NCBI GenBank assembly: GCA_003990765.1
Contig: RBNJ01000175.1
Span: 1 to 37,887 of the forward strand
DNA from: Jimgerdemannia flammicorona
Taxonomy: Eukaryota
Direction of reading: 5' to 3'
DNA length: 37,887 nt
Shown piece by piece: positions 10,480 through 32,945 of the stretch. Position 1 is the stretch's first letter. Each line of letters begins with the position of its first letter. The notes beneath the pieces were generated by a model. That model did no database searches. It saw nothing but the letters and a program-made list of their open reading frames with translations, and was not told where the DNA came from. A program made the position numbers and the translations under genes.

Positions 10480-11585
10480 ACTTTACCAAGTATCTATACT
10501 GTTTGAGAGTATGGTGGTTAAAGCAAACTAGTGAGCTAAGGGGTTACAGTTGAGTTTCTCTTATACAGAGGGTGTAAGAGATATAGTTCTTCTCAAGAGA
10601 AGTATCCAGTAACTTGTTCTCTCTGGTAGCTCTTGAGAGAAGTTATAGGATATATTATAGAAACTTCTGGTAGAGAGTGGTTAATGGGGCCCATTGTATT
10701 GATATCTGCTAATAAAATAATAAGTAAGAGAAGAACTGGGGACTCCAGATATAGAGGTGAGACTGTCTTCTGTTAAGAAGTACTCTAGTAAATGATTTCT
10801 GTCTTGAGGATAATATGGAGTATCTGTGAGAACATAGGAGAGATCTATAGCTGGAGGCCTGACAGGTGGTAGGAATTAGTAAGAAATAGGACTGAGCTGA
10901 TATCTGATCATAGAGTAAGATATTGGTACAGAGGCTTCCACCTAAGTTCTGGATGATATGGTAGAGATTTCTATAATAAAGTATAATGTTGAACTTTTAG
11001 TTAAGATATCTGAGTGATGGGAGTATCTTTGATTACAAGAAGTGCTTTAATATTAAGCAGAAGATTGAGGTAGTACAGACTCTAGAACATTGACTGAGAG
11101 AGTGTGAGATCTTAGTAGACTTTTGAAGGATGATTAAAGAATAGCTGAGGATATAACCCTCTAAGCAGAAGGTGGAGAGGCAGTGGGATATTCTTCAGAT
11201 ATAGCTAGTGGAGGAAGTGAGTAATAAGTGATTGACAGTTGGGTAGGCTCTAGCTATTTAGATTGAGCTTACTAGACATTAGCTATATATTTTTGAAGAT
11301 GACCAGAAGTTGGTGCTTGGGGTGAGAGTTATGAGGTGAGAGTGATTGGTGTTGGAGCTTCTGAATGGATAGTGGCAGGGGTGGGGAACCTGAGGGAGTC
11401 TGCATTATAGACTGGTGGAGAAGATTTGTGCAAAGAGTAAGAAAAGGACCAATATATCTGGGGGGGTAATTTCCTTTCAAAGAAATGGAGGAAGAAGGGG
11501 GGAGTAGACTAATCTGTATTAATATAACATTAGTTTAGATTGGTTTGGTAATAAATATGAAAGTCCAAGCAATTATAAAAAAAAA
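10480..11585 (+). mobile_element. LINE F: 5'-truncated (~1.1 kb) plus-strand copy of the same LINE group
   Basis: Begins in ORF2 at DFTK.LYCLR.WW, homologous to 28291 region of D. AATAAA at 11550-11555 and A9 tail at 11577-11585. Degenerate 17-bp TSD tagccactcagatacag (10463-10479) / taaccgcccagacacgg (11586-11602), with all 5 differences being transitions. Confidence 0.88.
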
Positions 11586-11642
11586 TAACCGCCCAGACAC
11601 GGCCACCCACGTATCCCACAAAAACAGAGATGAAATCCTCAC

Positions 11643-11850
11643 CTTCCCTTCAAACCTTCGGAGGATGCGCTCAAGCTCTCGACCAGTGCTGCGGCATGCA
11701 GGCTTCATAGGGCACATTGGGCGTGATATGTTTGGGGTACATTTTTGCGACGTCGACTAGAAGGGTCTCATAAGCTTTGAGCATGCAGAGGTCGAGGTAG
11801 ACTTCGAGGTTCATCGGCGAATTTAGTCGAAGCGCGAAAGAGTTTTCGCC
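11643..11850 (-). pseudogene. Possible exon of an unidentified host gene (frameshifted), whose next intron carries LINE F
   Basis: Bounded by catag|GGC and AAG|gtgagg. Reads GENSFALRLNSPMNLEVYLDLCMLKAYETLLVDVAKMYPK... then shifts frame to ELERILRRFEGK. No family recognised. Confidence 0.3.
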
Positions 11851-13359
11851 CTATGGCGTTGCGAGTCGGATCTCGATCTGCGTGTGTCTGGGCCCGGGGG
11901 ATGAGTATCGAATCCACTGTACTCTATTCAACATCACCACACGAGCCAGAACCTCACATTCAAACCACCAACTCTCACACGACTCACAAACCTGCGTGAG
12001 TCTCAGGCACGCGACAAGACCTCGACCATGAATCTCGATGAGAACGGACAATGAAAGTAACCGTCCTTGCAGACAACCTTGACTATCAAAACGTAAACCT
12101 TTTCGCTCACCTTTTCACTCACAATCGCGATGTCAACCGTCTGTAAGACGTTTGTTTTTATTGTTTATAAATTAAAATACATAAATACACATAAGCATGT
12201 AACAAACGCCCCCGAATGGAGATGACCTAGAATAGCCCAGTTTTTGCCCTTGATCAAGGGGCTCATCGTTGGCTTAAAAGCAACCAAGACCGGGCGGCAC
12301 TGCGCTTTCGAGTTGGCATTTCGCGCCGGTAGTAAGAATTGTGAGAGGGCAGATTCGAAAAAAATAAAAAATAAAAAAGTAAGACAAGGCGGGCAAAAGA
12401 AACTAAGAGCAATACTTAACCTAAATAAGCAGATTCTTTCCCCTCCCGTCTAAACTACAAAGGCTGTGAGGTACCCACTCCCAGAACGGAGAGGAGCACC
12501 TTATTACCGTCCTGACCAAAGGACGCAACCTACCAAGGTCGATCAAACGAAAGGTGACATTCACGTGTTGGCGTCGCCCAAGCGGGCCACATAGTAGGTT
12601 GCCCTTTATACTAGTATGACAAGGCACGAATTAAATCCATTGCAAACAATGAAGGACGTAGCATTTACGCCCTCTGCCCTGAAACAATAGTCACATACAA
12701 AGCCTATTGCTTAGATGGAGATGAGCAGGGCGTCCAGGGTCTATTGGCGAGTGTTCTTCTCCGGTTAGTCGGTTTTACTTAATTGACCCGAGCAGGCTGT
12801 TTACTAAGCATTAGTATAGTTTCCCCTTTAATATCCTCATTATTTCATTTAATGTTTATTGGAACAAAATATCAACATAATGGCATAATAACAGATATAT
12901 ATATATATTTTACAAAGTTTACATTTTTTTTTCGATTTTCTTGCATGTTTGGATAAATATTTTATTTTAATATATTCTCAGTGTATTTCAATACTATTTA
13001 TAAAATAGAGGAAACTAGATGAGTACGCACATTTTGGGCACAGCGATGGTCTTCATTGCAGGCATGGCAGCGATAGCGACGCCGTGTGTGAGGGCTCGGC
13101 ACACATGTCCTTGGTAGCCCCGATGGAAAAGAATCAAATGTAACGGGCCGCGAGATTTTGGTTGCGACCAGAAACCCTGACGTTGTCAAAAACAGATGGT
13201 CAACTGGTTCACTTTGCCGATTTGCGACAACGCCGTTGGCACGGGATAAAACAATCGCCGCGGATTCAACAATCCTTTGTGTAGTTCACTTTTAACCACT
13301 ATAGATTAGATTTGATGGGCTCGATGCAATAACAGTTCGTATAGGTAAAGAAATACAAT

Positions 13360-14197
13360 TTATTCGATTATAAATTCCGTTCCATTTTTCATTTACGACC
13401 CGTCCTCCGATTTACGGCCCTTAATAACGCCGAGTTTCTTTAATGTATTTTATGCGCAGCAGACCCGAGGCCCGCGGCGGTATTGTGGTAGAAATTGCGA
13501 GATGGAGAATTTGGGCCCGTAGGGATTGTACGCCTCCACCAGGATATTATCCTCTTTTAAAATAAATAATTAATACGATATATCCACAGTCGCTTGTGTT
13601 AGGCTTTTCAGTCATTCCAACAGCACCACCACCACATTTCTTGTGCTGTCCATCGGTCCTTCGTGAGTCGTGAATCGAAATGCCGTTGGTAACGATCTCT
13701 ACACTGTCGCGGCAAACGTTTGAAGCCGGTCACTTCGATAAATTCAGAAGCACCAGTCATTGGAATGTGTCGAAATCGTTAAGTCTTCTTCATCGGTAAA
13801 AGGACCTGTCGGGGTGGGCACCAAAGAATGTGTACGACGTTTCTGAAGTCTTTCCACAGAAAGAAAGAATATAATGAAAGACTCCATACAAATCTTTCTT
13901 TTTCGGGTGGGTCACACTATCGTGCATGCACAACTGAAAAGGGGGGCTCGATTTCGAAAGTAGTTTTCGGCGAGGAACTTCCAGCGGAAACCTCATTGGG
14001 CTACCTTCGGCGATTTTCGTGGATTCTGGCGCACGGGGGGATTGGCCGATAGCTAGCCAGTTGCTACCGTATTTTGCGCAGGCTTTTCTGAGGATTTGGT
14101 CCTCTTCATTGGACCAAGATTTGGGGAACCAAGGATTTCGGGGCTGACTGAGCGGCGACGGTGAGGAAGCGGAACTGTGTAAGGATTGCAACAACGT
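13360..14197 (-). pseudogene. Myb-repeat paralogue 1 (pseudogene)
   Basis: KSWSNEEDQILRKACAKYGSNWLAI repeat; collinear with copy 3 including both intron positions and the terminal ATC GAA stop. The start position reads cgccACG instead of cgccATG; internal deletions and frameshifts. Confidence 0.85.
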
Positions 14198-14600
14198 GGC
14201 GAGGTGTGTCGTGTATGGCTTAGACCAGTCGGATGACCTCAGACGAAACGTTGGCGACCTCGGTGGATTAACAATATTGGATGAAACGGCACTGACTATT
14301 GATACTGAAACTGGCGTAAATCTGAATCCGAATCTGAACTGAACTAAGTATAGGGAATATTGTTCCGAGCGGTTTCGGCCACTTTGCCGTAGCTGAAACT
14401 ATGTTCTTAACTATATCCATCGAACGTCGGGCGCGGAATGTCGGTTCGCTACCTTCGACAACCCGCTTTATTATTCAAATGTCGATTTTTCCATTAGTCA
14501 CGCTCCACGCCAATATTGAACTTTATTGTGGTGTAGTTCGCTTTGGAAGGATTAAATACAATAACATTTCACATAGGCAAAGAAATACAAATGATGTGAT

Positions 14601-15508
14601 TTATTCGATATTAATTCTCGCGATTTTTTCGCTTATGTCTCGTCATCCGATTTACGGCCCTTAATAGGGCCGATTTTCTTCAAAATCTTTATGCGCTGCT
14701 GGACCCTGAGGCGCGCCGCGGTAGTCAGGCAGCAATTTCGAGATCGCCGGGAATTTGGGCCCGTAGGGATTGAGGCATCCACCAGGAATTTATCCTCTTA
14801 TAATGCAAATGTTGTGATATATCTGAAGTCGCTTGTGTCCAATCATTTCAACTGCTCACTACATACCTTGTGCCGTCCATGGATTCTTTACCACCTTTGG
14901 ATCCAAATCCCGTAGGTAACGAGCTTTACACGTTTGGCACCAGTCACTTTGCTAACTTCGGAAGTGATGGTCCCCCAGTCACTTGGATGATGCTTAAATG
15001 TGAATGGGTACGACATTTCTTATGGTATTCCACAGAAAAAATAATATATAGAACTGACTCTTTACATTACCTTATTTGCGACTGGGTCAGATCATAGTAC
15101 TTCACATTGTTCCTTGTCCCAACTCTCTGAGCCAACTCAATTTGTCATTTGGCTGGCTCTTTTCCTCAGGCAACCAAGTATCCGATTTCCCGGCACAGAA
15201 TCCCCACAGCGACCCAGCTCGATATGGAAAGTAGCCAACGGCGTGGAACCTCCAGTGGAAACCGTATTGGACCACCTTCTTCCGCTGGAGGCGTGTTTCA
15301 TCCTCCGTCCAAGCGAGAGAGCCGTCATGAGATTTCGGATCATGCATGAGTCTGACAAATCGCGAATAGGTGTGTGAATTGGGCAATACCTTGCCAGGTC
15401 CTTCCATTTTCGAGGGCTTCTCTGAGAATGCTGTCCTCTACGATGACCAACCGTATACTTGGGAGGTGACCGAGCAGAGATGGTGAGGAGTCAAGTGAAA
15501 CGGTACAT
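14601..15508 (-). pseudogene. Myb-repeat paralogue 2 (pseudogene)
   Basis: cgccATG at 15508 reads MYRFT*LLTISARSPPKYTV; contains LAWTEDETRLQRKKVVQYGFHW. Collinear with copy 3 but with an early stop, deletions and frameshifts. Confidence 0.85.
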
Positions 15509-16400
15509 GGCGTGTGTGGCTTAGACCAGTCGGGCGTGTGTACCTCAAAATTGACGCGAACTGCGCTACGCAAATGAGACCTCTTGAAATATATCTCGGA
15601 CTTACGCGGAGATCCCCATATATTTGTAGTATTTTAAGCAGTAAAATTATGTATTCTTTGGCTTGAATAAAAGGTCGGAGTCTAGAAGTCTAAAATCTGG
15701 AAGCCGCGTACATTCAGAACGGGTGGGGATCGGACATCCCAGGAATTCCCGTACGACAGGTCGTTTTTTCAGGGCCCCACGGCCGTCCCTAGACGCATTT
15801 CATACGTCCACATCGATCCAAAAATTTCCCTCTGTAAACCGCGACTCGATCATTTTCTGTGGAGCTGTCATAATCGCATCTCGTGGAACAATGACGTCAT
15901 ACAAACCGCTCGCCGCTATACGCATTCTACGCATACCCTCGAAGGACACGTGTGGGCTCAGGCGCGGGCTTACGCGGCGATCCTTACGCATTTCATAGTA
16001 TTAGTTTTGGAAACTTGCATAAATAGGGTGTAATAGAATCCAGCAGGCAAGGAATATACATGGTCCATCGCCACATCCGCACTAGCGATGAAGTTAGAAA
16101 ATGCGCAAGGCCCACACAGGCACAACGTGGCTCCCAACATAGCCAACCCGTTTCACTTGACGACTAATACCAGCCCGCCTAGCCTGTCGAACTGCCGGGT
16201 TTTCCAGGAGTCACGATCCGCGTCAATTGCAGCGACGCCGTTGGAAAGGGACCTTGAAATTGACCTTTTAATATTACTTATTTGGCATTTGTGTAGTTCA
16301 TTTCCACTCACTATGGATTGGAAAGTAACTAGAGTAACTTCGTTTGGAAAATTTCAATACAAAAAGCAATTTATATGTATAAAGAAATACAATTGATGGT

Positions 16401-17522
16401 TCATTCGATTTTATATCCTTCGCCATTTCCCTCTTGCGACTCCTCTTCCAATTTACAGTCTTTAATAATGCCGTGCTTCTTTAATGCCCGTAAGCGCCCA
16501 CGGATTTGAAATTGACCGCGGTAGCTGGGTAGCAATTGCGAGATGGCGGAGATTTTAGTGCCATAGCGATTATAGGCGTCCCCCAGGATTTTATCCTCTT
16601 ATAATGGAGTAAGTAAATAATCGATGTGATAGATATTAAGTCGTTTGTGTCAAAAATTTAAATCATTCCAACAGTGCACACAAACCTTGTGCTGTCCATG
16701 GGTCCTTCACCAACATTGGATCCAAATTCCATTTGTAATGAGTTCTACACTGTCTCGGCGAACGTATTATACCAGTCACTTTGCTAACTTCAGACGCAAT
16801 GAGCCCCCAGTCGTTTGGATGTTGCTTGAATGCATCGAGAATCGCCTTGTTTTCTTCAGGGGTAAAGTGACCTGTCGGGGTGAATAACATTAACAATGAA
16901 TGTGTACAATATTTTCTGAAGGAATTCCACAAAAATTAATTAGACTCCATACAATACCTTTCTTTGTCAACTTGGCCAGACAATAGTACTTATGCCAACA
17001 CTGCATGTAGTTCCTTGTCCCAACTCTCTGGGCGATGGCTGGCCAACTCAATATGCCATTTTGGGTGGCGTCTAATAGCCTCTGTTCCTCCTCAGGCTGC
17101 CAGGCGCCCAAATTTTGGCGAAGATTCCCCACAGCGGGCCAACGACTCGACAGCTGACTGGGGCCTCGATTTGGAAAGTAGAGTTCCGCGAGGAGTTTCC
17201 AGCGGAAACCGTATAGGGCCACCTTCTCACGTAGGAGGTGGGTTTCGTCCTCTGTCCAAGCGAGAGAGCGGTCACGAATAGGTTTCGGATCACGCGCTAC
17301 CGGTGGCGCGAGCCTCGTGAAGCGCAAAGCGCAGGCGTTGGGCGTGCGGTCAGGGAGGGATTGGGCAATAACCTGCCAGCGACAGCCGTTGGCGCGGGCT
17401 TCTCTGAGGATGTTGTCCTCTTCGTTGGACCAAGCTTTGCGGACTGTATACTTGGGAGGTGATCGAGCAGAGATGGTGAGGAAACGGAATTGGGTCAAGG
17501 ATTGCTTTATGAAACGGAACAT
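16401..17522 (-). CDS. Intact five-repeat Myb/SANT protein, 315 aa, 3 exons (17522-16958, 16871-16686, 16597-16401), possible mitochondrial presequence
   Basis: Exon lengths 565+186+197=948 nt stay in frame across two phase-1 GT-AG introns (86 and 88 nt) to TGA at 16403-16401. Repeats begin KAWSNEED, LAWTEDET, GAWQPEEE, GHFTPEEN and DPWTAQED. The second acceptor is AAG, conserved in paralogues 1 and 2. Confidence 0.88.
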
Positions 17523-18386
17523 GGCGAGGACGAGCGCGTGAAGCGAGTGTGGCTTAGACCCGTCGGACGTATTTTCGATAATCGAACTTTGTGGAACCGT
17601 GACGTTGAAGCCACGCAAGTTGACACGTATGTGTTGGCTTGGGCGGCAACCGCATGGAATCTATTTCGAAAAATTAGTTAAATAGGGATGGACGCCAGTG
17701 GTATTATGTGAGGACTTGAAATATCATTCAGGAACGGAACGAATTGTCCAAAGAATCCGTGAACTAAGGTTACTTTTTAGGCTCAATTGGTTGCGCTACG
17801 ACGATTTACTAAATGAATTCGCAACAACATTTTCAGGTTACAGACCGCCCTTTTATTAGCAATATATTTCTGGTGGAAAGTCGCTTTCGGGGAGACTTCA
17901 AGGAAAATTCACTAAAGTTCAAGCATTTGTAGACAATAATTACGGCCGTCCGCGACCGTTCAGCCCCCAGAACGCCTGTACGCTATTTTCTTTAAGGATC
18001 TCGGGATATATATGATCCACTGCCACATCCGCGCTAACGACGAAAAGTTGAAATGCTCAAGACCCACCTATGCGACGAGGCCTTGGAAGTGCTAACAACG
18101 TGAACTCCTAACTTAGTCAGCGTTTCGCCCGGGCTCGCTTAATTTGTTCAAGTGCCGATTTTTCTAAAAGCCACAATCCACGCAAATTGCCACAACGCCT
18201 TAGGGAAGGGATAATATAACGATAACGACCGCGGACTCAAACCATACTGAAATCGAACTTTCAAAAAGCTGTTTTTCATTATTATTATTATTTTATGCGA
18301 ATCACTATGGATTGGAAAGTGACTTCATTTGGAAGGGTTCAATGCAAAAGAAATTCATATAAGTGAAGAAGTACAATTGTAGTCAT

Positions 18387-18995
18387 TCATTCGATTTTAA
18401 AATCCTCGCCATTGCTCTCTTGCGACTCGTCTTCCGATTTACGATCGTTAATAACGCCGCGACTCGTTAATGCCTTTAAGCGCTCATGGACCCGAGACCA
18501 ACCGCGGTAGTTGGGCAGCAGTTGCGAGATCAAAGAGATTTTAGAGCCGTAGCAATTGTAGGCATCCAACAGGATTTTATGCAATAATTAAATAAATATA
18601 TATATTAAAATCACTTGTGTCAGGAGTTTCATTCATTCCAACAGCAAACCACATACCTTCCGCTGTCCATGGGTCCTTCACCACCTTTGGATCCAAATTC
18701 CGTTGGTAATGAGCTTTACACTGTGACGGCAAACGATTCAAACCGGTCACCTTGATAACTTCAGAGGCGAATGGCCCCCCAGTCGTTTGGATGTTGCTTG
18801 ACTGCATTCAGAATAACCTTTTTCTTCATTGGTGAAGCGACCTGTTCGGTGGATAATAGCGAATGAGTGTGACATTTCTCAAGGCATTCTACAGAAATAA
18901 ACCATATTGAACAGATCCCATATGATACCTTTCCTTTTTGACTAGGTCATACTCTTGTACTTTTGCTAACACTGTATTAGGTTCCTTGTGCCAAC

Positions 18996-19000
<5 letters not shown>
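18387..19000 (-). pseudogene. Myb-repeat paralogue 4, 3' part (split by LINE B)
   Basis: Homologous to copy 3 exons 2-3 (RLPSQCKAHYQRNLDPKVVKDPWTAE; ...GEDFKIE*). Frameshift near 18820, lost second acceptor, and ends abruptly at the poly(T) at 19000. Confidence 0.88.
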
Positions 19001-19027
<27 letters not shown>

Positions 19028-19246
19028 CAGGATCAAGACCCCATGGAATTTTATTAGAAGAGAACCTAGACTATATAGGCCAAAACCCTCCCCCACCCCT
19101 ATCCCAAACACTACACCCCCATTAAATATAGGCTTGCTATTGTTCAGAGTTCTACTGTACCAGGTACAGTAGAGCTTACTTTAGCCTGCACCTTATTCTA
19201 CACACTATGCTCTCCCTACCAGTTGGAGAAAAGTGACCAATAATAA

Positions 19247-22200
19247 TCATTCCCAATGTGCCACCTTGTCCCCAACCCCAACCTGCCATCCCTCCTCAAA
19301 TACATGAACCCAATGCCCAGCCAACCCAACCCACATGGCCAGAGCCCAGCCAAGGGTCAGCCATTCATCCCCAACCCCACCCACCAGTCTCCAGTAAAGC
19401 TCTTCCCATCTCTCTCCTTCCCCTCCCTCCAAGGCACACAGCCCTAACTAGACCATGATACATCTCCAAAACTCCTCCAAAACCTCACACTCGCTAAGCC
19501 AATGTTCAGGTGTTTGTACCACTCCTCCCTCCTGACCAATGTTGAAACATTTCTCACACTTGAATACTCCACCATCCATCAAGTATCCAGACTGATAGTT
19601 CAACATCACATTCTGCCATAAGACTCACCACCACACCACCCAGAACTTGGGGGACAGCCACTGCCTCACCTGTTTGCTCCAAAGCCAGAGCCCATTCCAA
19701 TTCCACTCCTCACCAATTTCAACCCTCTACCAGGCTTCTGGCCACAGGTCTCTACCCAAGTCCTGCAGACACTCCATACTCTCACTAAGCTGAAAATCCT
19801 CCACCGGAATACCACCCAGTAGAAGCCTGTCCCACTGCCACATCCGTGGTCCCCAATCCTCCTTAGCCTCATCACCTCACTACTGAAGTTCAATTTTCTT
19901 AGCTCCATCCACCACCCCCCACCAGAAGCCCATAAACCACATCCTCCTGCTCTCCTCCATGGTTGCCATTGCAAGCAGGTCACCAGAGTCACTATGAGGG
20001 GAATACTGAACCTCCTACACCCTCTGCATGAGTGGCACTCACTCCCAACCCCTTAGCTCACTTGTCCTCCTCAACCACCAAGCTCTCAAGCAGTATAGCC
20101 ACTTAGTAAAGTCAACTAAACCCAGCCCACCTCTTTCCATGGGTAGTGTGAGCACCTCCCAGCCTACCTGGCTTCACCACCCTCCCCAGATCCATGACCT
20201 CGCCATCCTCAACAGCCCCCTGACCACCCAAGTTGGAAAATCCAAATGATACCCCACATACCACAGCTTTGGCATCCAATATACATTCAGCACTATCACC
20301 CTTCCAGCTAGGGACATATACTGACCTTCCCATCACAGCAGAACATTTCCCCACTCCAGAAGCTGTTGGTTCCACTATACATGGGGAAGAAGAGATCCAA
20401 ATACTGAGAAGTAGATCTCCAAATAATGCACTGGTTTGCCAGCTGGCACCACCATCCCAATTACATTGCCACCAACAATTCCAGCACTCAGCACCAGAGT
20501 CTTGCATTTGTGCCAGTTTAGTTTAGCACCAGAGCCCCTCTCAAACCATTTCATGGACCTTCATAACTTCCCCACATCCATCAAGGAGCCCAGCCTGACC
20601 ACTATATCATCAGCAAAGGCCCCCACCTTCCAATTAACCCCTAAAATATCCAAACCCCCAATCTGATGCTGAATCCTGTCCAGTAGGGGCTCCAAGGAGA
20701 GGGCATACAATATGGGTGACAAGGGGTCCCCTTGTAGCACCCCCCACCCCAGAGGAAAGGCCACTCCCCTGTAGCTATTGATGACCAACACTGCCTGACT
20801 GTCCTCCAAGAGGCCAATCAATGAACCTCGGAACCCCAGGGGGATACCAATCCATTTCAGTACTCCCTCTAGCCAGATCCTCCGCACTCTATCATAAGCC
20901 TTCTCTTGATCCAGAAATACCAACTGGTCATCCACTCCTATAGTCTGGGCACCTTCAATCACTCTATATACCCAAGCTGTTCCATCACAAATCAACCAGC
21001 CACCAATAAACCCATGCTGCTCCACACCAAGCACCTGCTGAGCGATTCCTTGCAGCCTTGTCACCAAGATCTTTGTCACCAGTTTATGGTCTATGTCAAG
21101 TAGCATGATCAGCCATCAGTTCTTTCAATCTTCCTGCCTCCCCTTATTCTTATAGAGCAAGGAGACTAGCCCTAGGCACTGGCCCCCAATCTAAGTACCA
21201 GACTGAAGAACCTTATCATACATAGCAGTCATTTCCTCTAGCACCTTGCCCACCTTAGCCATCTTCTTTCAAAAATCCCAGGGAAGTCCATCCTCCCCCA
21301 GAGCCATCCCCTTACTCGTCGAGGCCACAACCTTGCAAATTTTCTTGCCACTCACTGGGTCCCCCAAAGCCTCTAGACCCATCACAGAGTTTGGGTGTCA
21401 ATCCCCTAGCTGCCTTTCAATGTCCAAAGCCTCTGCACCCCCTTCCTCCTCACTCCATAGATTCTCCCAATGGGTACTCAGCAAGCCCAGAATCACCAGA
21501 GTCCCCACCACCAGCTCACCATTCATATCCAGAACTCCCTCCCACCATTGTTTCGTTTGTCATACTAATAACAACTGCATCAAAAACCTAGTAGGCCTCT
21601 CCCCCTCCTCAAGCCCCTGCCACTGCAGTTGGGCCACTATCCTCTGTAGCCTCACCTCCTTCTCTCCTCATAACACTCCTTTAAGCTCCTCCACCTCCTT
21701 TCGGATTCTCACAATACACCAATCAGTTATCTCCCCGACTTCTAACATGCCTGCCCATCTCCCCATGGGTGCCTCCAAACACTGCAAGGTCCACAACACC
21801 TGCTGCCACCACTGGATACACCTTCCTTTCCCTGCTTCCCTCCAATATTCCTGAGCATTCACCTTCAGTCTCCTCCAGCAGTCCCCAATCTCCAGGCCCC
21901 ATTCCCACCACCTTCTAATATTCCCAACAATCTCCATTTCCCAACCCTTCCACAAAGCCCTATCCTCCAACAAGGAAGAATTTAGCCACCAATGTTCAGG
22001 CCCATCCTCCCTTCCCCCAAACCTCCCCCCTCCAAGCAACCCCCAGTGATCAGACTACGGATATGAAACCACCTCCAGTGCTATCCAGACATCTGCTCCC
22101 CAACACTCTGCTGTCAAAACCCAGTCAATCCTGGAGCCCAGCCCTGCTGCTCAGTGGGTGTACACCCACTGATCACCCCAAAACTGCCTTTCTGAGTCCA

Positions 22201-22726
22201 CTAAAGAACTCAGCCTCTCTGCCTCCAACCAGTCACCCAACCCACCACTCTCACTCTGCATGTCTCTCCCTCCATCTGTTCTATCTATCTCCTTGTCCTG
22301 TACCATGTTGAAATCACCCCCCATATAGTCCAACCCAACCTCTCCCAAGACACTGGCCTCTTTTAGCCTGTGAATCCAATCCACCCTCTCCCCTCTCTCA
22401 GCTGGGCAGTAACAAGACCCAATCATCAACGAGCTCCATCCAGGCCTCCTACACACTCCCTACACCACCCAAGACTCCCAATGTCCAATGTCCCCAATGT
22501 CCCCCATCCCTTTCTGAATGAGAATACCCACTTTCTCCCTCCACACCACCACCCCCCCCCATTCCTTAGTCCAATCCTATAAATCTACATCTGCCTCAAA
22601 ATGAATATCCTGTAACAAGAAGAGGTCCACATCCAGTCCCTTAAGCCATCCAAATATATACTTCCTCCTAGCTGCCCCCCATAACCCATTGACATTCAAA
22701 GAGAATATTCTAGTTATACTGTTCAT
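19247..22726 (-). pseudogene. LINE B ORF2 (APE + RT + CCHC), disrupted
   Basis: ATG at 22726; GGDFNMV, FLDQEKAYDRV, QGDPLSP and GAFADD motifs; many stops. The 3' limit is approximate. Confidence 0.92.
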
Positions 22727-22757
22727 ATTGAGAGAATGTTTCAATAGAGACCCCAGT

Positions 22758-24668
22758 CTAGTATTCTATGCTCATCTCATCCCCAGTCAGATCTAAGTGT
22801 CATTCAGCTTCCAAGTCAACCTCAGCATTAGTCTGAGCATCCAGTGCCTCCAAGATTTCCTGACATTCCACTCCATCTACTATCTCCATCTCTGACCAGT
22901 AATCCATGCAGACTGTATGCCACTTCTCCAGTCCCTTCCTTGAGTTCCACAAGTATAATGCCCTGTCACTCACAATCCTCCTAAGTTCCTCTTCTCTCTG
23001 ATCATTGACTTGATATTCAACTGACTCCAGGAGAACAGCCAGGATCTCATTCCTCATCTTCCTTGGCACCTCCTCCCCCTATAGAATCTCCTCTCAATAC
23101 CTCTCCTCCATAACTCTGAAATCCTCTCCCCTCAGCTCTTCTGCCACAACCCCTTCCAGTGTCTTCCACATCCACTTCTCCTCATCCACAGCCTCCGCCA
23201 CACCCTGAGTGACTTGTCCCCCATCCACCTCAGGGTCCACCAGTGTGCTCCTCCTCACTGACTCATCCTACTCCTCATCTGGTACATCCAGCAGCACCTC
23301 CTCTCCCTCAGCTCCACCTGGGACACTATACTGAGGGTGGACCCCTTTGCTCATTTCCACATCTGCCTCCACATCACCTTCCCTTTCCTCCTCCACTCCA
23401 ATCCGAGCCCCACCCTGGGCCCTTTCACCTCCCTTAGCCCAGGCACTCTCCTGCAATCCTGCAACCCCCTCCCCTGAGCTTCCACTAGCCCAACCCCCAC
23501 CCAACTTTGCTAGCAGCTCCTTCTGGATTTTCCTCCCCTATATCTTCTTCCAGGCCCCCCTCTCTATCTGGACCCTCTTCTCATCCACCTTCCCCACCAC
23601 TGTCCTGGCCTCAAACTCCTCCCAGGCCAATCTCCTCCTTGCAACTGCCCCTTCCAGGTCCTCCAGAGCCTCCAACAGATCTTCCTCCTCCTCCTGGATC
23701 CCCTTCATCCTTGTGACCTTGCACTCCACCTGACCCTACCTCAGTATCGCTGGCCAGTCCCTCGACTTTCCCATACTCTCCTTTCCAGCCAGCCTCACTC
23801 TGATATCGACATCACCAGTCTGAAGCTCCATACCCTCCCAGACTCTGAACCCAACATCCACAATCTCTCCATACTCCTTGATCACCTCCACCACCAACTC
23901 TCTGGTCCTCTCCTTCAACACTATGGGGAGATCCAATACCATCAACTGCACCACTCAGGGGTTCCAGTACATGCACCTGGCCATAGAGACCACAACCCCT
24001 CCAACTGTCACCCCCTTCTCCAAGGCTGCCAGCAAGGTATCTTCCTCCTCAAACCCCACCTCTACCCCTTCCTTCCTCTTCAAAAACTTCATGGATGCTG
24101 CTCCCTTTGCCTCCTGCACCACTAGCCCCAAAATCATCCTCGCTGTCACTGCCAAGCCTCAGAATTACATTGTGACCACAAATTCTGATCTCGACTTCTT
24201 GAGTAATGGGGCTGACACCATACCCATCACCCCATCTGCCAGGTCTCCAGGCCTTGTGCCCACTCCTTGTTCTGAATCATCAACCACTATTATATCTGGA
24301 TTTTTTGCCAGATCCCCAGTCACAGCCCCATCAACAGTCACATCTCCAGCCCCTACTCCCACTCCTTCTCTACCACTGGAAGCTCCCCTGGGCACACCTC
24401 CCTGTCCCCCAGCAGCAGCTGTCGACACCTTCCCTAGGCCCAGCCAACCATCCAGACCAGAGGCCATCTTTCCCATTCTGACCTTGTCCACAAAGGTCAA
24501 CCAATCCCCTCCTCTCTGCCTCAGACCATCCCTCCCTTCACCCCCAGGGCTACAGCTAGCCATCAAGGCCCCTGGTATCTCCAAACCATCTCCCCTCCTC
24601 CACCTACTGCCAGCCAAAGGCACTGCCACTCCCCTGACCAGTACACTCACCAGTTTGATCATTGCCAT
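22758..24668 (-). pseudogene. LINE B ORF1, disrupted
   Basis: Fragments 24165-24668, 23955-24155, 23736-23954, 23538-23729 and 22800-23069 are collinear with D ORF1. Confidence 0.85.
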
Positions 24669-24754
24669 CCATGTCGATAGTCATTAGACACCAAAAATGT
24701 AGTAAAAAGTGTTGTCAGAGTCTTGTATCACCTGAATGTTACTGGTGAAAGATG

Positions 24755-25739
24755 TTTAGAGAAAAGTGATCATACATATGCTAATGACTGAATGTATATG
24801 CTCAAATCTCTAGTATATATACAAGACTATATTAGAGCTAGATAATAAAGTCTCTGCTATCTCAAATAGAGTGACAGATAAAGAAAAAACCCTCCAAAAG
24901 ATACAGAACAGTAGATAGGGTCTGGTACTCTCTAATGGAGTGAGTGAAGAACTTATATATGAGATAGAAGAAGATCTCCAATATCCCACTACTCAAGTCT
25001 ATAGACCTTGATTGGATTATCTTTTCAGCTCTTAGTTCTAGTTAAGTATAGTCTAAATATACAATTTAGATAGCCTCAGACCTCTCAATAATTCCAAATA
25101 ATCAGAATCTAACCTTTTATCACTAAGAGTAACTAAGAGTAATACCTACTATCTAACTATCTTATATCAATCAGAAGGCCCCACTAATATAATATTTATA
25201 ATAATCTTGATGACTATCAATTGTCTGACATATAACTAGTCTACTATAATTATTCTTTTATCTATCTGTAATAATTATCTCCTCTTCTATTCTGATACTA
25301 TCTAAAAAAAAGTTATCTATACCAGAACATTGCTCACCAAGAAGCTCACCAAGCTCAGAGAGCTTATTATAAATATATACTAAAGATTTACTATAATCTT
25401 TACTGATATTTGATACATAAGATTAGCAAACTCTTTATATATATAGTCTATAATATACTAAAATAATATCTTATTAATAATAGCAAAAGAAAGAAAATAT
25501 TATACTAAAATAGATATACTCTAGATATATTCAAAAGTATCAAAAACTATAGAAAAGTAAAGAAAGTACTAATCTAATATTAATAAAAGGGCAACTGATT
25601 ACTATTGTCTTTCTCTCACTATTATTTAGTAGATACAGTAAATCACACTGAGATAGAGGGGGTAAAGTTAGAGGAAAAGAGATTCAAATAATTATTCACC
25701 AATATCTTATAACTAATATAATAGTAGAGAAAGAAGCTA
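24755..25739. other. ~985-bp heavily mutated segment of unknown origin between the LINE B 5' end and the right-hand TSD
   Basis: No visible similarity to the LINEs or Myb genes; CpG-free and TpA-rich; enclosed by the duplicated target 18983-19000 / 25740-25756. Confidence 0.55.
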
Positions 25740-26201
25740 TCCTTGTTCAACTCTCTAAACTATAGTTTGCTAACTCAATTTTCCATTCTGAGTGGTATCT
25801 AATAGTTTCTATTCCTCTTTAGACAACTAGGCACCAGATTACTGAGGCAGATTTCTCACAGTTGGTTGATAAGTATATAACTGAGTAGAGACTTAATTTC
25901 AAAAAATTGCAAAAACTATATTGGGTTACTTTCTCTTATAGATGACAGAATTTGTCCTTGGTTTAAGAGAGAGATCTGTCACTAATAGGTTTTTAATCAT
26001 ATATAACTAATATCATAAGTCTGGTAAAGTATAAAGATAAGGCCTTAGATATGTAATTAAAGATATATTAGATAATAGTCAATTAGAACTAGCAGAATAT
26101 ATAGGTTTTTCTGAGAATATTGTCCTCTTTGTTAAACTAAGCTTTATATAGAGAATTTTTAAAGTAACTGATCAAATAATGAGAAAGCAAGAATTGCTTT
26201 C
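25740..26201 (-). pseudogene. Myb-repeat paralogue 4, 5' part, hypermutated
   Basis: Aligns by eye to copy 3 at 17012-17508. For example ttccattctgagtggtatctaatagtttctattcctc vs tgccattttgggtggcgtctaatagcctctgttcctc, and ctgagaatattgtcctctttgttaaactaagcttt vs ctgaggatgttgtcctcttcgttggaccaagcttt. Most differences are C>T or G>A. Confidence 0.88.
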
Positions 26202-27142
26202 TTTTTTTTTTTTTTTTTTTTTTTATTCTATAGATATAAGATCTATTTATTAACTAATTTATAATAAATATACAGTTCTTATCTTATACTAATAGTCTCA
26301 ACCCAATTTACTCTACCTTAATATATTTTCTTCTCTTCACTCTCATCTTCTCAAAAATAACTATACTATTAACTATTATAATCTACCTACTACTCTTCTT
26401 ATAAATCTCTTCTATCAGATATTAATAGCAATCACTCTATAGGTCCCACCCCCTCTATTAGCTAGAAAGCATATCCACCATTAGTTCTTCTTATCTTATT
26501 ACCTTTTTCCCTAAGATCATCTATCTTCTATCCTTAAATACATATAACTAATGATCAGTTAACCCTATCTATACTACTAATATCTACTCAATAGTGAGTC
26601 ACTCATTACTAATATATTTTATTAGCCACTTTCTTAAGTTATCCTATCCATATCCTCCTCTATCTATATGCTATCTCACTCTCAGATAGTCTTTAACTCT
26701 CTTCCATAAGTTATTAAGTACTTCACACTCACCTAGCTAATATTCAGATATCTACTAAATTTCTTCCTTTTGTTCTACATTAAGACACTCCTTATACTTA
26801 AAACTGTTGCCCCCTATCAAGTATTCTGATCTAAAGTTTAATATGATATTTCTTCTCAGGATATACTACTATACTATCTAAAACTTTAGAGAAAGTTACT
26901 ACTATATCTTAGCACTCTAAAACCATACTCTAGCCCAGTCTCAAGTCTTACTAATATCTGCTGTCTATAGTCCAATGATCATAGATTCTGATCCACCCCC
27001 CACTGATACTCTATACCTATACTAAAATTAAAGTTTATCAATAACCAACTACCCAACAGAAGTCTGTCTCACCTCTATATTATAGGACCCCATTGGGCTT
27101 CTCCCTTATTATTATACTATTAAAAATCAATATAGTGAGCCA

Positions 27143-27144
<2 letters not shown>
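26202..27144 (-). mobile_element. LINE C, 3' part (old, heavily mutated; interrupted by LINE D)
   Basis: T23 tail at 26202-26224, AATAAA rc at 26246-26251, collinear with the 3' region of LINE A; continues at 32946. Confidence 0.85.
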
Positions 27145-27179
<35 letters not shown>

Positions 27180-27229
27180 GTCTCTTGGACTGCCCTTTAT
27201 TACCAAAGTCTATAATGTATACAATACAA

Positions 27230-30200
27230 TGTCACCCCTGTCCTCAACCAACGCCCCAGGGGCCCAAACCCTCTCTCTCATCCTCCCCCTGCCCAAGCAC
27301 CACCCAATTACCCACTACCCGAACCCTCCCACCACTCTTCTGGGCAATACATTACACCAGACCCCTGTGGTACCCCCCACCCATCCCCCAACCCCACCAC
27401 CAACTATTCAAAATATCCAACATCAACCATTCCCATCTAGCCATCTTGTCACCAACCCCGACCTAGCGCCCTTCCTCAAATACATAAATCCAGTGCCCTG
27501 CCAGTCCAACCTACATAGCCAAAGCCCAACTAAGGGTCAGCCATTCATCCCCAACTCCACCCACCAGATGCCGGCAGAGCTCTCCCCACCTCCCCCCTTC
27601 CTCTCCCTCCCTGGCCCCCAGCCCTACTCTGTCCATAATACCTCTCCAAAACTCCTCCAAAATCTCACATTCACCAAGCCAATGTTCAGGCGTTTGTATC
27701 ACTCCTCTCTCCTGATCAACATTGAAACAATCCTTGCACTTGAATACCCCACCATCCACCAAGTATCCAGACTGATAGTTCAACATCACATTCCGCCATA
27801 GGACCTGCCACCACACTACCCAGAACTTGGGGGGCAGCCACTGCTGCACCCATTTGCTCCAAAGCCAGAGTCCATTCCAATCCCACTCCTCCCCAATTTC
27901 AACCCTCTGCCAGGCTTCTGGCCACAGGTCCCCACCGAGGCCCCGCAGATACTCCAGACCCTCGCCAAGCTAAAAGTCCTCCACCAGGACCCCACCCAAT
28001 AGAAGCCTGTCCCACCGCCACATCTGCAGTCCCCAATCCTCCTCGGCTTCATCACCTTGCCACCGAAGTCCAATCTTCTTAGCACCATCCACCACTCCCC
28101 ACCAAAAGCTGATAAACCACATCTTCCTGCTCCCTTCCATGGCTACCATCACAAGCAGATCCCCGGAGCCACCACATGGGGAGTACCAAACCTCCCACAA
28201 CCTCTGCATGAGGGGCACCCACTCCCGCCCCCTGAGCTCGCTTGCCCTTTGCAGCCACCAGGCTCTCAGATATAGAAGTTGTTTAGTAAAGTCCACTAAG
28301 CCCAGCCCACCTCTTTCCAAGAGCAGTGTGAGCACCTCCCAACCAACCTGGCTTCGCCATCCTCCCCAGATCCATGACCTCACCATCTTCAACAGCTCCT
28401 TAACCACTCAGGTTGGAAAATCCAAATGATATCCAACATACTACAGCTTCGGCATCCAGTACACATTCAACACCATCACCCTTCTGGCAAGGGACATATG
28501 CCGGCCTCCCCATCTCAGCAAAACATTACCCCACTCCAGAAGTTTACAGTTCCACCATGCCCAGAGAAGAAGAGATCTGAACACTGAGAAGTAGATCCCC
28601 AAGTAGCACACTGGTTTACCTGCCGGCACCCCCATCCCAATAACATCGCCACCAACAATTCTGGCACCCAGCACCAGCATCTTGCATTTGTGCCAGTTAA
28701 GTTTAGCACCAGAACCCTGCTCATACCATTCCACAGTCCTCTGTAACTCTCCCACATCTTCCAAGGAGGCCAGCCCGACCACCATATCATCAGCAATGGC
28801 CCCCACCTTCCAGTTTACCCCTAAAATGTCCAAGCCTCCAATCTTATGCTAAATCCTGTCCAGTAGTGGCTCCAGGGAAAGAGTATACAATATGGGTGAC
28901 AAGGGGTCCCCTTGTGGTACCCCGCATCCCAGGGGAAAGGTCACCCCCCGGTGGCCATTGATGATCAATACTGCCTGACTGTCCTCCAAGAGGCTGATTA
29001 ATGCTCTTTGGACCCCTGGTGGGACACCAATCCACTTCAGCACTCCTTCCAGCCATAATCTCTGCACTCTATCATAAGCCTTCTCTTGGTCCAGAAATAC
29101 CAATCTGCCATCCACCCCTGTTACCCGAATACCTTCAATCACTCCATGAACTCAGACTGTCCCATCTCAAATCAACCGACCACCGACAAACCCACGTTGC
29201 TCCACACCAAGAACCTGCTGGGCAATGCCCTGCAACCTCATCACCAGGATTTTAGTTACCAATTTGCAGTCCATATCGAGAAGCATAATCGGCCACCAGT
29301 TCTTCCAGTCCTCATGTCTTCTCTTGTCCTTAAAGAGCAAAGAGACCAGCCCTAAGTGCTGTCCCCCAATCCAGGCACCAGACTGAAGAACTCCATCACA
29401 CATAGCAGTCATTTCCTCTAGCACCACACCCACCCCAGCCATCTTCTGCCAAAAATCCCAGGGAAGCCCATCCTCTCCCAGAGCTGTCCCCTTACTTGTT
29501 GAGGCCACAACCCTGCAAATCTCCTCACCACTCACTGGGTCCCCCAATGCCCCAAGTCCCATCACAGGGTCCAGGTGCCAATCCCCCAGCTGTCTTTCAA
29601 TGTTCAGGGCATCCAATCCCCCATCCTCCTCACTCCAAAGATTCCCTCACTGGGTTCACAGTAGGTCCAGAATTGCTGGCATCCCCACCACCAGCTCGCC
29701 ATTCTCGTCCAAAACTCCCTCCCACTGCTGCCTCATACATCGTGCTTGTAACAACCATGACAAGAATCTGGTAGGCCTCTCCCCCTCCTCAAGCCCCTGC
29801 CACTGCAGGCAGGCCACCATTCCCTGCAACTGCTCCTCCTCCTCCCTGCATAGTATCCCTTTGAGCTCCACCTCCTGCCATATCCTCACAATATGCCAAT
29901 CAGTCACAGCCCCATCCTCCAGCACACCTGCCCATCTCTCCATGAGTGCTGCTAGATGCTGTGAGGCCCACAGCACCCACCGCCTTCGCTGGGCACACTT
30001 TTCTTTCCCTGCTTCCCTCTAATACTCCTGAGCCTTCGCCTTCAGCCTTCTCCAGTGGTCCCCAATCTCCAGTCCTTATTCCCGCCACCTGCCTATATTT
30101 CCAACCACCTCCGATTCCCATCCCTCCCATAACACCCTATCCTCCAATAGGGAAGAATTCAGTTGCCAATGTCCAGGCCCATCCTCATTTCCCCCAAACC

Positions 30201-30903
30201 TCCCCCCTCTGAGCAGCCCCTAGTGATCAGACCATGGACACCATATGACTTCCAGCACTGACCAGACATCTGTCCCCCAACACTCTGCCGTTAGAACCCA
30301 GTCAATCCTAGAGCCCAGTCCTGCCACCCAGTGGGTGTACATCTACCAATCGGCCCAAAAATGTCTTCCTGAGTCTACTAGAGAACACAACCTCTCCATC
30401 TCCAACCAGTCACCCAACCCACCACTTTCACTCCACATGCCTCTCCCTCCATCAGTTCTGTCCAACTCCTTATCCCGTACCATGTTGAAGTCACCCCCCA
30501 TACAGTCTAACCCAACTTCTCCCAACACACCAGCCTCCTTCAATCCATGGATCCATTCCACCCTCTCCCCTCTCTTAGCTGGGCAGTAACAGGACCCGAC
30601 TGTCAGTGGGCCCCATCCAGGCCTCTTCCACACTCCCCACACCACCCGAGACCCCCAATGTCCAATGTTCCCAATGTCCCCCATCCCTTTCCAAATGAGA
30701 ATACACACTTTTCCCCTCCAAACTGCTGTGCCCCCCCATTCCTTAGTCCAATCCTGTAAGTCTACATCTGCCTCATAACGAATATCCTGCAGTAAGAAGA
30801 GGTCTGCATCCAGTCTCTTAAGCCAACCAAAAATATACTTCCTCCTAGCCGACCCCCGTAGCCCATTAACATTCAATGAGAAAATCCTAGTTGTACTGTT
30901 CAT
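27230..30903 (-). pseudogene. LINE D ORF2 (APE + RT + CCHC), disrupted by stops
   Basis: MNSTTRIFSLNVNGLRG (ATG 30903), FLLQD, GGDFN, FLDQEKAYDRV, GVPQGDPLSP, GAIADD, YLGI and CKDC...EHWLGEC. The 3' limit is approximate. Confidence 0.93.
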
Positions 30904-30934
30904 ATTGAAGAAATGTTGCAATAGAGACCCCAAT

Positions 30935-32848
30935 CTATAATTCCATGCTCATCTCATCTCCTGCCAGATCCAAGCGCTGCTCAGCTTCCACTTCACCCTC
31001 GGCATTATCCTGAGCATCCAGTGCTCCCAAGATTTCCTGACATTCCACTCTGTCCACTTCCTCCATATCAGCCCTATAGTCCAAGCAGACAGCGTGCCAC
31101 TTCTCCAGTTTCTTTCTCGAATTCCACAAGAAAAATGCTCTGTCACTCACAATCCTCCTAAGTTCCTCCTCCCTCTGATCATCAACCTGATACTCAACCG
31201 ACTCCAGGAGGACCGCCAGGATCTCATTCCTCATCTTCCTCGGTATCTCCTCCCCCCATAGGATCTCCTCCCAATGCTTCTCCTCCAACACCCTGAAGTC
31301 CTCACCCCCCAGCTCTTCAGCCACCACCCCTTCCAAGGTCTTCCACATCCACTTCTCCTCATCCACTGCCTCTGCCACCCTCTGAGCGATTTGTCCTCCA
31401 TCCACCTCAGGGTCCACCAGCGTGCTCCTTCTCACCGACTCATCCCACTCCTCATCTGGCACATCCATCAGCTCCTCCTCTCCCTCTGCCCCATCTGGAA
31501 CACTATACTAAGGGTGTACACCCTCACCCATTTTTGGCATCCACCTCCAAATTGCCCTCCCTCCCCTCCCCACTGCCAATCCAAACTCTGCCCTGGGTCA
31601 TCTCTCCCCCCTCAGCCCAGGCACTCTCCCATGATCCTGCAACTCCCTCCCCTGAGCTTCCACCAGCCCCACCCTTGCCCAACTTCGCCAACAGCTCCTT
31701 CTGGATCCTCCTCCCCTGCATCTTTTCCCAGGCCCCCTTCTCCATCCGGACCCTCTTCCCATCCACCTCCCCAACCACCATCCTGGCCTCAAACTCCTTC
31801 CAGGCCAATTTCCTCCTTGCCACTGCCCCTTCCAGGTCCTCCAGAGCCTCCAACAGATCCTCCTCCTCCTCTGGAGTCCCCTTCACCCTGGTGACCTTAC
31901 ACTCCACCAGTCCCCACCTCAGTGCTGCTGGCAAGTCCCTCGACTTCCCTGTATTCTCCTTCCCAGCCAGCCTCGACCTGACATCGACATCACCAGTTCT
32001 AAGCTCTGTGCCCTCTCAGACCTTGAACCCAATATCCACAATCTCACCATACTCCTTGACCGCCTCCACCACCAACTCCCTGGTCCTTTCCTTTGATACC
32101 ATTGGGAGGTCCAACACCATCAACTGCACCACTTGGGGGTTCCAGCGCATGCACCAGGCCATAGGTACTACAACTCCACCAACCATCACCCCCTTCTCCA
32201 TGGCTGCTAATAAGGCATCTTCCTCCTCAAACCCCATCTCAACCCCTTCCTTCTCCCTCAAGAACTTCACCAATGCTGCTCCCTTAGCCTCCTGCACCAC
32301 TAGCCCCAGAATCATTCTCGCCATCACTGCCAAGCCCCGGAAGCACATCATGACCACGAATTCTGACCTTGACTTCTTGAGTAACAGGGCTGACACCATG
32401 CCTGTCACCCCATCAGCCAGGTCCCCAGACCTTGTGCCCACTCCAAGTCCTGAATTGCCAACTGCCATCATATCTGGATTTTTTGCCAGATCCCCAGTCA
32501 CAGCCCCATCAACAGTCACATCTCCCACCCCTACTCCGGCCCCTTCCCTACTACCAGAAGTACCCTGGGGTGCACCTCCCTGACCCCCAGCAGTAGCCAT
32601 CGATGCCTTCCCCAGGCCCAGCCAACCATCTAGCCCAGAAGCCATCTTCTCCATTCTGACCTTGTCAGTAAAGGTCGACCTCTCCCCTCCTCTCTGTCTC
32701 AGACTGCCCCTCCCTCTGCCACCAGGGCCTTGGCTAGCCATTGAGGCCCCTGGCATCCCCAAACCATCTCCCCTCCTCTCCACCTGCTATTAGCCAAAGG
32801 TGCCATCACCCCCCTGGCCAGTATGCTTACTAGTTCGATCATTGCCAT
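30935..32848 (-). pseudogene. LINE D ORF1, disrupted
   Basis: Fragments 32016-32783, 31524-31934 and 30935-31468: Gly-rich N-terminus, RRM-like middle, acidic helical C-terminus. Its stop lies 31 nt before the ORF2 ATG. Confidence 0.87.
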
Positions 32849-32945
32849 CCATGTTGTTAGTTGTCAGACACCAAAAACATTGTACAAAGTGTTGTCTGAG
32901 TCTTGTGTCACCCGAATGTTACTGGTGAAAGATGAAGATATCCTG

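Follow-up and report, generated by a model that had tools for sequence, protein, structure and literature searches.

The genomic window analysed here comprises 37,887 nt and represents one contig of Jimgerdemannia flammicorona (Endogonales, Mucoromycotina). It contains four tandem Myb paralogues on the minus strand within a stretch of genic and unique DNA (approximately 11600-19000; CpG observed/expected ratio, o/e, about 1) as well as several long interspersed nuclear elements (LINEs), which are referred to as LINE-A to LINE-E. Myb copy 3 (16308-17567, minus strand) is intact and expressed and served as reference for the comparisons. Myb copy 4 is present in two pieces: the 3' part (18302-19000, minus strand, GC content 0.41, 27 CpGs) is a pseudogene, and the 5' part (25740-26201, minus strand) is hypermutated. 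The pieces are separated by LINE-B, a full-length element on the minus strand (19026-24754, RVT_1 match on 20561-21115), and by a 985-base AT-rich insert termed X (24755-25739, GC content 0.28, 0 CpG). On its other side, the 5' part ends at a T23 tract (26202-26224, minus strand), the poly(A) tail of LINE-D, which truncates copy 4 near its start codon; the start codon and the promoter are located off the contig. The C>T load of the two pieces is about threefold apart (0.46 vs. 0.15 per C/G), depending only on the side of the transposon insertion on which a piece lies.

The 5' piece is not recovered by a plain blastn search of the window against itself. A transition-tolerant Smith-Waterman search aligns 25701-26196 to positions 16985-17492 of copy 3 with a score of 459 (shuffle null with n = 100, 60.9 +/- 8.2, maximum 87), and in a purine/pyrimidine alphabet the piece scores 191 to 17019-17489, the next best matches being other Myb copies with scores of 50 and 45. 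The 3' part is 74.6-75.4% identical to copy 3 over 737 aligned sites, as determined by blastn and by the alignment used for the mutation spectrum. In copy 3 coordinates, the two parts overlap by exactly the 17-18 duplicated bases. The left copy of this target-site duplication is located at 18983-19000 (TCCTTGTGCCAACTCTCT); the right copy at 25740-25756 (TCCTTGTTCAACTCTCT) differs from it by one C>T and is one base shorter. The left copy is abutted at 19000 by a T26 tract (19000-19025, minus strand), which represents the poly(A) tail of LINE-B and possibly includes a remnant of the tail of X. Thus, the duplication that splits copy 4 brackets LINE-B and X together and not LINE-B alone. The initial annotation had recognized 25740-26201 as the matching 5' half of the gene, starting with a duplicate of the insertion target, and this assignment holds, with the 17- and 18-base copies falling on the same place of copy 3. 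At the level of sequence, 25740-26201 is confirmed as the 5' part of Myb copy 4, the 3' part of which ends at 19000; the pieces are assigned to one gene because their break points complement each other and carry a 17/18-base duplication, and because, in terms of transversions, no paralogue is nearer to either piece than copy 3 (0.108 for the 3' part and 0.123 for the 5' part).

Both pieces differ strongly in their mutation spectrum. Over 462 sites, the 5' part is 58.9% identical to copy 3 and shows 123 C>T and G>A changes, 11 T>C and A>G changes and 56 transversions, whereas 43, 58 and 80 changes of these classes, respectively, are found in the 737 sites of the 3' part. The rate of C/G>T/A changes is 123/270 in the 5' part and 43/283 in the 3' part (Fisher's test, p = 5e-15), while the transversion rates are equal (56/462 vs. 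80/737, Fisher's test, p = 0.51), in agreement with the earlier proposal that the fate of the sequence was set by position. When the changes are polarized with copies 1 and 2, the ratio of forward to reverse transitions is 87/3 in the 5' part and 22/22 in the 3' part. As had been noticed before, the 3' half keeps many CpGs (27 in 18302-19000, o/e 0.90) and the 5' half has none; of the CpGs present in copy 3, 11/23 are retained in the 3' piece and 0/34 in the 5' piece, where 14 have become TpA. The GC content of the 5' piece is 0.29, compared to 0.59 in the matching columns of copy 3. The substitutions fall mostly into the contexts that had been named, CpG (39/68, 0.57), CpA (31/60, 0.52) and CpC (38/81, 0.47), and CpT (15/61, 0.25) is the least mutated context, both in the gene piece (p = 2e-4) and in LINE-D (p = 8e-7). 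The change in rate at the break is abrupt: 4/32 C/G positions are changed in the last 75 bases before it and 15/40 in the first 75 bases after it, and within the 5' piece the rate amounts to 0.38-0.55 per C/G over the full length.

The use of the other gene half as a built-in control had been suggested previously, and it is strengthened by the finding that the 3' half is a frameshifted pseudogene. The last exon has remained open, but three frames are needed to read exon 2, and the remnant of exon 1 contains two stops. Judged by its reading frames and substitutions, the 3' part is a valid internal control, which is neutral DNA of the same age that was unprotected by function. Selection does not account for the contrast since the 3' part is itself a dead pseudogene, and a different age of the two pieces is ruled out by their equal transversion loads.

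The same kind of mutation is found in the neighboring LINE-D, the 3' part of which is located at 26225-27144 (minus strand, GC content 0.31) and the remainder at 32946-37853 (minus strand, GC content 0.34). Ordinary blastn recovered only three short fragments of this element. In the purine/pyrimidine alphabet, LINE-D matches LINE-A (1-5290, minus strand, RVT_1 match on the open reading frame (ORF) 1105-1611, 3' end beyond the window edge) with scores of 307 (LINE-A 1-816) and 417, 367, 211 and 406 (LINE-A 1268-5301), and the two elements are collinear across the insertion of LINE-C up to a common 5' terminus. Polarized against LINE-A with LINE-B and LINE-C as outgroups, LINE-D carries 596 C>T and 156 G>A changes in 3254 sites and 126 reverse transitions. 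Both strands are hit equally, with plus-strand rates of 0.42 per C and 0.45 per G, and the rates are 0.41-0.47 per bin in the 3' part. With regard to context, 284/566 CpA (0.50), 265/619 CpC (0.43) and 198/557 CpT (0.36) are changed, and NpC rates of 0.37-0.48 reveal no 5' TC or CC preference. A second hypermutated element, LINE-E (10475-11590, plus strand), is an inverted, 5'-truncated 3' LINE fragment with an A9 tract at 11577-11585, which scores 367 to LINE-B 19310-20113 in the purine/pyrimidine search. All of its 150-base bins, as far as the 3' end, show 0.28-0.41 changes per C/G, and CpG-rich DNA starts just beyond. A mutation gradient over LINE-E towards the genes, which was suspected from the GC profile, was rejected, as these rates are flat.

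In contrast to LINE-D and LINE-E, LINE-A, LINE-B and LINE-C are not hypermutated and have GC contents of 0.50, 0.51 and 0.54, respectively. Their CpG o/e ratios of 0.04, 0.08 and 0.22 and their (CpA+TpG)/(ApC+GpT) ratios of 1.55-1.61 are the signature of a CpG-specific decay. The C>T levels are bimodal, with 0.37-0.47 in LINE-D, LINE-E and the gene piece and about 0.09-0.18 in the lineages of LINE-A, LINE-B and LINE-C, each class having three members. The composite index for repeat-induced point mutation (RIP) takes positive values in the AT blocks only (+0.03 to +0.52) and ranges from -0.27 to -1.06 elsewhere.

The LINEs carry remnants of reverse transcriptase and endonuclease on the minus strand, as revealed by RVT_1 and Exo_endo_phos profile matches, and they possess the hallmarks of LINE insertion, namely plus-strand T23-T32 tracts, which correspond to poly(A) tails, and target duplications of 16 and 17-18 bases. 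LINE-B and LINE-C are 82.1% identical over 5525 bases (blastn) and have the 5' terminus GGTGAAAGATG in common; the 5' terminus of LINE-A is GAGAAAGGCAT at 5280-5290. The idea that an AT-rich 5' region is an intrinsic part of the LINEs was rejected, since four LINE copies share one 5' terminus, past which their sequences are unrelated. On the sense strand, the LINEs are G-rich and C-poor (plus strand 37-40% C and 13-14% G in 1-5290, 19026-24754 and 27177-32934); the long antisense open frames in these elements are a by-product of this skew, and LINE-D retains the same skew in proportion despite its hypermutation.

The order of events can be deduced from the borders of these elements. LINE-C (27145-32934, minus strand, comprising a T32 tail and the body 27177-32934, Exo_endo_phos match on 30343-30948) is nested in LINE-D and flanked by a 16-base target-site duplication. 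The left copy is located at 27129-27144 (AATATAGTGAGCCACC), and the right copy at 32946-32961 differs from it by one A/C; an 11-base filler (32935-32945) is found between the 5' end of LINE-C and the right copy. No transition mismatch is present between the two copies at at least 7 C/G positions, for which the probability would be about 0.009 if mutation at 0.43 per site had come after the insertion, and the GC content drops from 0.54 to 0.31-0.34 at the exact ends of LINE-C. LINE-C entered an already mutated LINE-D, as shown by the matching target-site copies together with a GC edge that is sharp to the base. LINE-B, too, has a normal GC content as far as its canonical 5' terminus at 24754, and X is rich in A and T from the outset; this sharp GC boundary is the observation which suggests that LINE-B arrived after the mutation as well. 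At the time of mutation, the gene piece lay between X and the old LINE-D.

These results modify the picture drawn by the initial annotation, according to which one half of the gene was trapped between LINEs. LINE-D does flank the piece on one side; on the other side, however, the 985 bases of X separate it from LINE-B. A spill-over of mutations from the neighboring recognizable LINEs appears unlikely in view of the GC content of LINE-B and LINE-C, which is 0.51-0.54 right to their ends, and of the later arrival of LINE-C. The interpretation was thus right in kind but wrong in anatomy and is only partly supported, as the adjacent clean LINEs look like later arrivals.

The following sequence of events accounts for the present structure. 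Copy 4 was disrupted by insertions of retroelements. LINE-D inserted near the start codon of copy 4, and an insert now represented by X presumably entered the middle of the gene with an 18-base target duplication; that X came before LINE-B is the presumed order. X, the 5' part of the gene and LINE-D then lost about 40-50% of their C:G pairs to T:A together, equally on both strands and in all dinucleotide contexts (CpG similar to CpA, followed by CpC and CpT), with the loss ending at the outer edge of the block. LINE-C inserted into LINE-D later, and LINE-B would most simply have landed in the A-tail of X; LINE-B and LINE-C have experienced CpG decay only. The arrival of X before LINE-B is the most economical reading. 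Alternatively, X could be a 985-base extra sequence that was brought in together with LINE-B; in this case, however, the boundary of the mutated region would have to coincide with the insertion point by chance. X has no relative inside the window (purine/pyrimidine search, best score 28, null 28-36), and its end, which scores 22-24 against the 5' termini of the LINEs with a null mean of 27.4, bears no resemblance to them.

The process itself is a conversion of C:G to T:A on both strands and in all contexts, which is confined to a repeat nest and the unique segment inside it. It is older than two further LINE insertions, which is shown for LINE-C and likely for LINE-B. The most plausible explanation, to which we assign a probability of roughly 0.5, is an old RIP-like cytosine deamination that was directed to repeats or heterochromatin and was active in this Mucoromycotina lineage for a limited time in the past; the nearest analogue would be the DIM-5/DIM-2 branch of Neurospora RIP. 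A RIP-like or methylation-deamination system had been proposed from the outset. The almost exclusive occurrence of C>T and G>A changes on both strands agrees with this proposal; the CpA preference of the Neurospora type, however, is weak. Repeats may have been targeted: LINE-D and LINE-E are hit and the 3' gene half is spared, yet LINE-A, LINE-B and LINE-C are not hit. Judged by their composition, the CpG-rich unique flanks appear to be spared.

Several observations weigh against a RIP-like process. Mutation depends only weakly on context, with CpT being hit least, unlike the strong CpA preference of Neurospora RIP. Strand-coordinated clusters of C>T and G>A are absent from the gene piece (67 runs vs. 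60.2 +/- 5.1 simulated) and from LINE-D (225 runs vs. 221.4 +/- 8.9 simulated), and nothing marks discrete rounds of mutation. LINE-B and LINE-C are 5.7-kb repeats of 81-82% identity, which lie 2.4 kb apart and are not hypermutated, so that the process is either not acting now or does not act on these two elements. Relative to transversions, C>T changes are only about two times as frequent in the AT blocks as in LINE-B and LINE-C, and the difference is in part due to longer exposure. Mutation did not extend into the outer flanks, the final 75 bases of the 3' piece being free of any excess (4/32), and the order of events depends on the supposed origin of X. In the 5' half of the gene, the transversion distance between copies 2 and 3 (0.089) is smaller than that between copies 4 and 3 (0.123); gene conversion within the array after the break of copy 4, or secondary changes in the mutated piece, could account for this discrepancy. 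AT-ward transversions are found at 28/270 positions in the 5' piece and 18/283 in the 3' piece (p = 0.09). A kingdom-wide screen published in 2025 labels J. flammicorona as 'no_rip' in the accessible part of its results (PMC12543289). Finally, the evidence is derived from a single contig.

A possible but doubtful alternative is a slow, position-dependent decay, in which a methylated nest of constitutive heterochromatin steadily loses cytosines by deamination of 5-methylcytosine, or of cytosine in compacted, late-replicating DNA, with neither homology sensing nor a burst. The gene half within this domain would decay along with it, and the outer half would remain free of methylation. Randomly interspersed C>T and G>A changes without strand runs fit this explanation, as does the CpG loss of the clean LINEs (o/e 0.04-0.22, ratio 1.55-1.61), which is expected under CpG methylation of transposons, and CpG is among the most mutated contexts of the gene piece (39/68). 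The transversion branches are 0.084 for LINE-D, 0.097 for LINE-A, 0.031 for LINE-B and 0.028 for LINE-C; LINE-D thus exceeds both LINE-B and LINE-C in branch length by a factor of about 2.7, and its greater age would cover roughly half of the extra C>T. However, the branch of LINE-A is as long as that of LINE-D, and LINE-D carries about 2.5 times as many C>T changes per C/G (0.43, 748/1750, vs. about 0.17, 212/1165). Furthermore, non-CpG cytosines are hit nearly as hard as CpG in the AT blocks, whereas LINE-A, LINE-B and LINE-C show mainly CpG loss; LINE-C is located within the block, yet has a GC content of 0.54 and sharp edges; and the C>T levels are bimodal rather than graded, though with three members per class.

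It is very unlikely that the 5' piece simply drifted neutrally to AT equilibrium while selection, or gene conversion from the tandem neighbors, kept the 3' piece in place. The 3' piece does lie next to the tandem array, and the closeness of copies 2 and 3 in their 5' half (0.089) is a hint of conversion; however, two frameshifts and two stops mark the 3' piece as a pseudogene, and it is just 75% identical to its nearest neighbor, which argues against selection or recent conversion holding it, and the equal transversions in both pieces (p = 0.51) do not fit with drift either. A highly improbable explanation is that 25740-26201 belongs to a different, older paralogue, or that the contig is misassembled, so that the pieces never formed one gene. 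The distance of the 5' piece to copy 3 (0.123) does exceed the 0.089 that separates copies 2 and 3 over these columns, and the two RNA runs described below are RNA contigs whose cover leaves out the joins. Nevertheless, the 5' piece has no nearer paralogue than copy 3, the complementary break points with a 17/18-base duplication lie beside a poly(A) tail, and the nesting is coherent, with LINE-D being collinear with LINE-A across LINE-C, which has its own duplication. Editing of retroelement cDNA by an APOBEC-like enzyme during retrotransposition, for which the coexistence of clean and hypermutated copies of one LINE family might speak, is hardly credible and is ruled out because both strands are equally hit (0.42 and 0.45) and the same load is carried by a piece of a host gene that never passed through reverse transcription, and the NpC rates of 0.37-0.48 show no 5' TC or CC preference.

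Compared to known systems, the RIP-like process favored here has most features in common with DIM-5/DIM-2-dependent RIP. According to the accessible part of the work on Neurospora (10.1101/115501), DIM-2-mediated RIP targets the single-copy linker between repeats; this branch produces C>T and G>A changes only, mutates repeats as well as the single-copy segment between them, and leaves behind relics that are AT-rich, lack CpG and have a positive composite RIP index, all of which is found in the window. The mutated linker has its counterpart in the 462-base gene piece between X and LINE-D with 0.38-0.55 changes per C/G. The same source describes a strong preference of Neurospora RIP for CpA, which is even more pronounced in DIM-2-mediated RIP; in the window, the CpA preference is weak and CpT lowest. 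Further differences are that the single-copy outer flanks are spared, at 19000 and, to judge from the CpG richness of the flank, also at 11590, that the present LINE pair with 81-82% identity is untouched, and that the host belongs to the Mucoromycotina. RID-dependent canonical RIP and the RIP-like signatures of the Pezizomycotina and some Basidiomycota likewise involve the conversion of transposon copies into AT-rich relics that are hardly found by similarity; however, RID-type mutation stays inside repeats, whereas here a unique segment of 462 bases is mutated and all contexts are hit. Basidiomycete RIP-like signatures show a TCG-type preference. AT-isochores, which reportedly occur in Leptosphaeria maculans and other ascomycetes, resemble the window in that GC-normal gene islands alternate with AT-rich blocks of degenerate transposons and border genes are affected; the window differs by GC-normal transposons nested within the AT blocks, belongs to a different phylum and comprises one contig. 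The CpG methylation-deamination of fungi with DNMT1/DNMT5, plants and vertebrates corresponds to the pattern of LINE-A, LINE-B and LINE-C, in which CpG is lost, TpG/CpA is in excess and the GC content is unchanged. In contrast, the AT blocks also lost 25-52% of the CpA, CpC and CpT cytosines, and CpG-only methylation fails to explain them because non-CpG cytosines were lost at similar rates. In Phycomyces, another member of the Mucoromycotina, the visible part of a published table lists Dim-2 and DNMT1 and, with the columns taken as they appear, has no entry for RID/Masc1 (PMC7862722).

The remaining parts of the window add to this picture. The block between LINE-A and LINE-E (5291-10474) is AT-rich with a GC content of 0.26; in the purine/pyrimidine search, it has no relative inside the window and no internal repeat, and thus no pair of long terminal repeats (LTRs) that could serve as an in-situ clock. 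An island of about 110 bases within 9120-9235 holds all 12 CpGs of this 5.2-kb block and includes two copies of CACGTGAGCT, 20 bases apart, and two copies of GATGACGT. These resemble E-box and cAMP response element (CRE)-type motifs, and the island could represent either a regulatory element that was protected or an insertion that came later. At the contig end, a T30 tract (37858-37887, minus strand) follows TGTA beside the 5' end of LINE-D and represents the tail of a further element. No tRNA genes or Rfam families were found across the window.

Within the Myb array, the ORF of copy 3 (16890-17660, minus strand) encodes three Myb repeats (PF00249, E = 8.7e-26), and its protein is 100% identical to an annotated J. 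flammicorona protein. Eight homologues with E <= 0.001 were obtained among 529 candidates, all of them from J. flammicorona; none of the eight is an intact orthologue of copy 4, the best match of which is copy 3 with 40/63 and 26/40 identities. Transcription and splicing of copy 3 are seen in RNA contigs of two small runs, each with 0.06 of the sampled words, which were placed on 13000-32900; the introns are located at 16598-16685 and 16870-16955 and have GT..AG ends on the minus strand. The contigs are spliced copy 3 transcripts, and their usable cover excludes copy 4, X and the joins. Over 16259-17528, one run is an exact match, and the second, which shows 9 differing positions and a gap of 19 bases, probably stems from another strain or allele. 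Copies 1 and 2 have no long ORF comparable to that of copy 3 (array 13311-17567). The transversion distance between copies 2 and 3 is 0.089 in the 5' half and 0.144 in the 3' half, where copies 3 and 4 are the closest pair (0.108); the closeness of copies 2 and 3 in the 5' half hints at gene conversion within the array.

The locus represents a known kind of phenomenon in an unexpected lineage, as RIP-like hypermutation is unreported in the group of the host. The accessible part of PMC11105155 states that RIP has been observed in the Dikarya only and gives an index-based signal in Zoophthora with caveats, and PMC8647823, in the portion available, cites another paper for the statement that RIP signatures were not detected in Gigaspora or the Mucoromycotina; PMC7928374 mentions RIP in general terms only. 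In the accessible part of the kingdom-wide screen, RIP-like signatures are enriched in ascomycete classes only, and the row for J. flammicorona reads 23, 0, 0, 23, values that appear without their column headings and are taken here as k-mers enriched in non-coding DNA, with none in repeats (PMC12543289). The same source gives a 4.01-fold enrichment of TATA in the non-coding DNA of J. flammicorona and assigns 62.3 Mb of 231.3 Mb to LINEs. The 'no_rip' row fits with the window, in which recognizable repeats have a normal GC content and the relics would be scored simply as non-coding DNA.

It is tempting to speculate, if only tentatively, that the Endogonales once had a RIP-like defense with broad context, which converted C to T in a homology- or heterochromatin-directed manner and maybe used a DIM-2/DNMT1-type enzyme without RID. 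If this is true, such mutagenesis would have existed outside the Dikarya, before the split of Mucoromycota and Dikarya, and its lapse would have let LINE and LTR elements expand to most of the genome of about 230-240 Mb. Kingdom-wide k-mer screens would then have missed the process because repeat annotation no longer picks up the mutated relics. The locus described here provides an alignment-based case with an internal control. If a genome-wide class of hypermutated relics were confirmed, it would indicate that screens based on repeat annotation can miss old episodes, and it would bear on the origin of repeat-directed mutagenesis and on the question why the J. flammicorona genome, given as about 240 Mb with >77% repeats in the accessible part of PMC10386755, is so rich in repeats.

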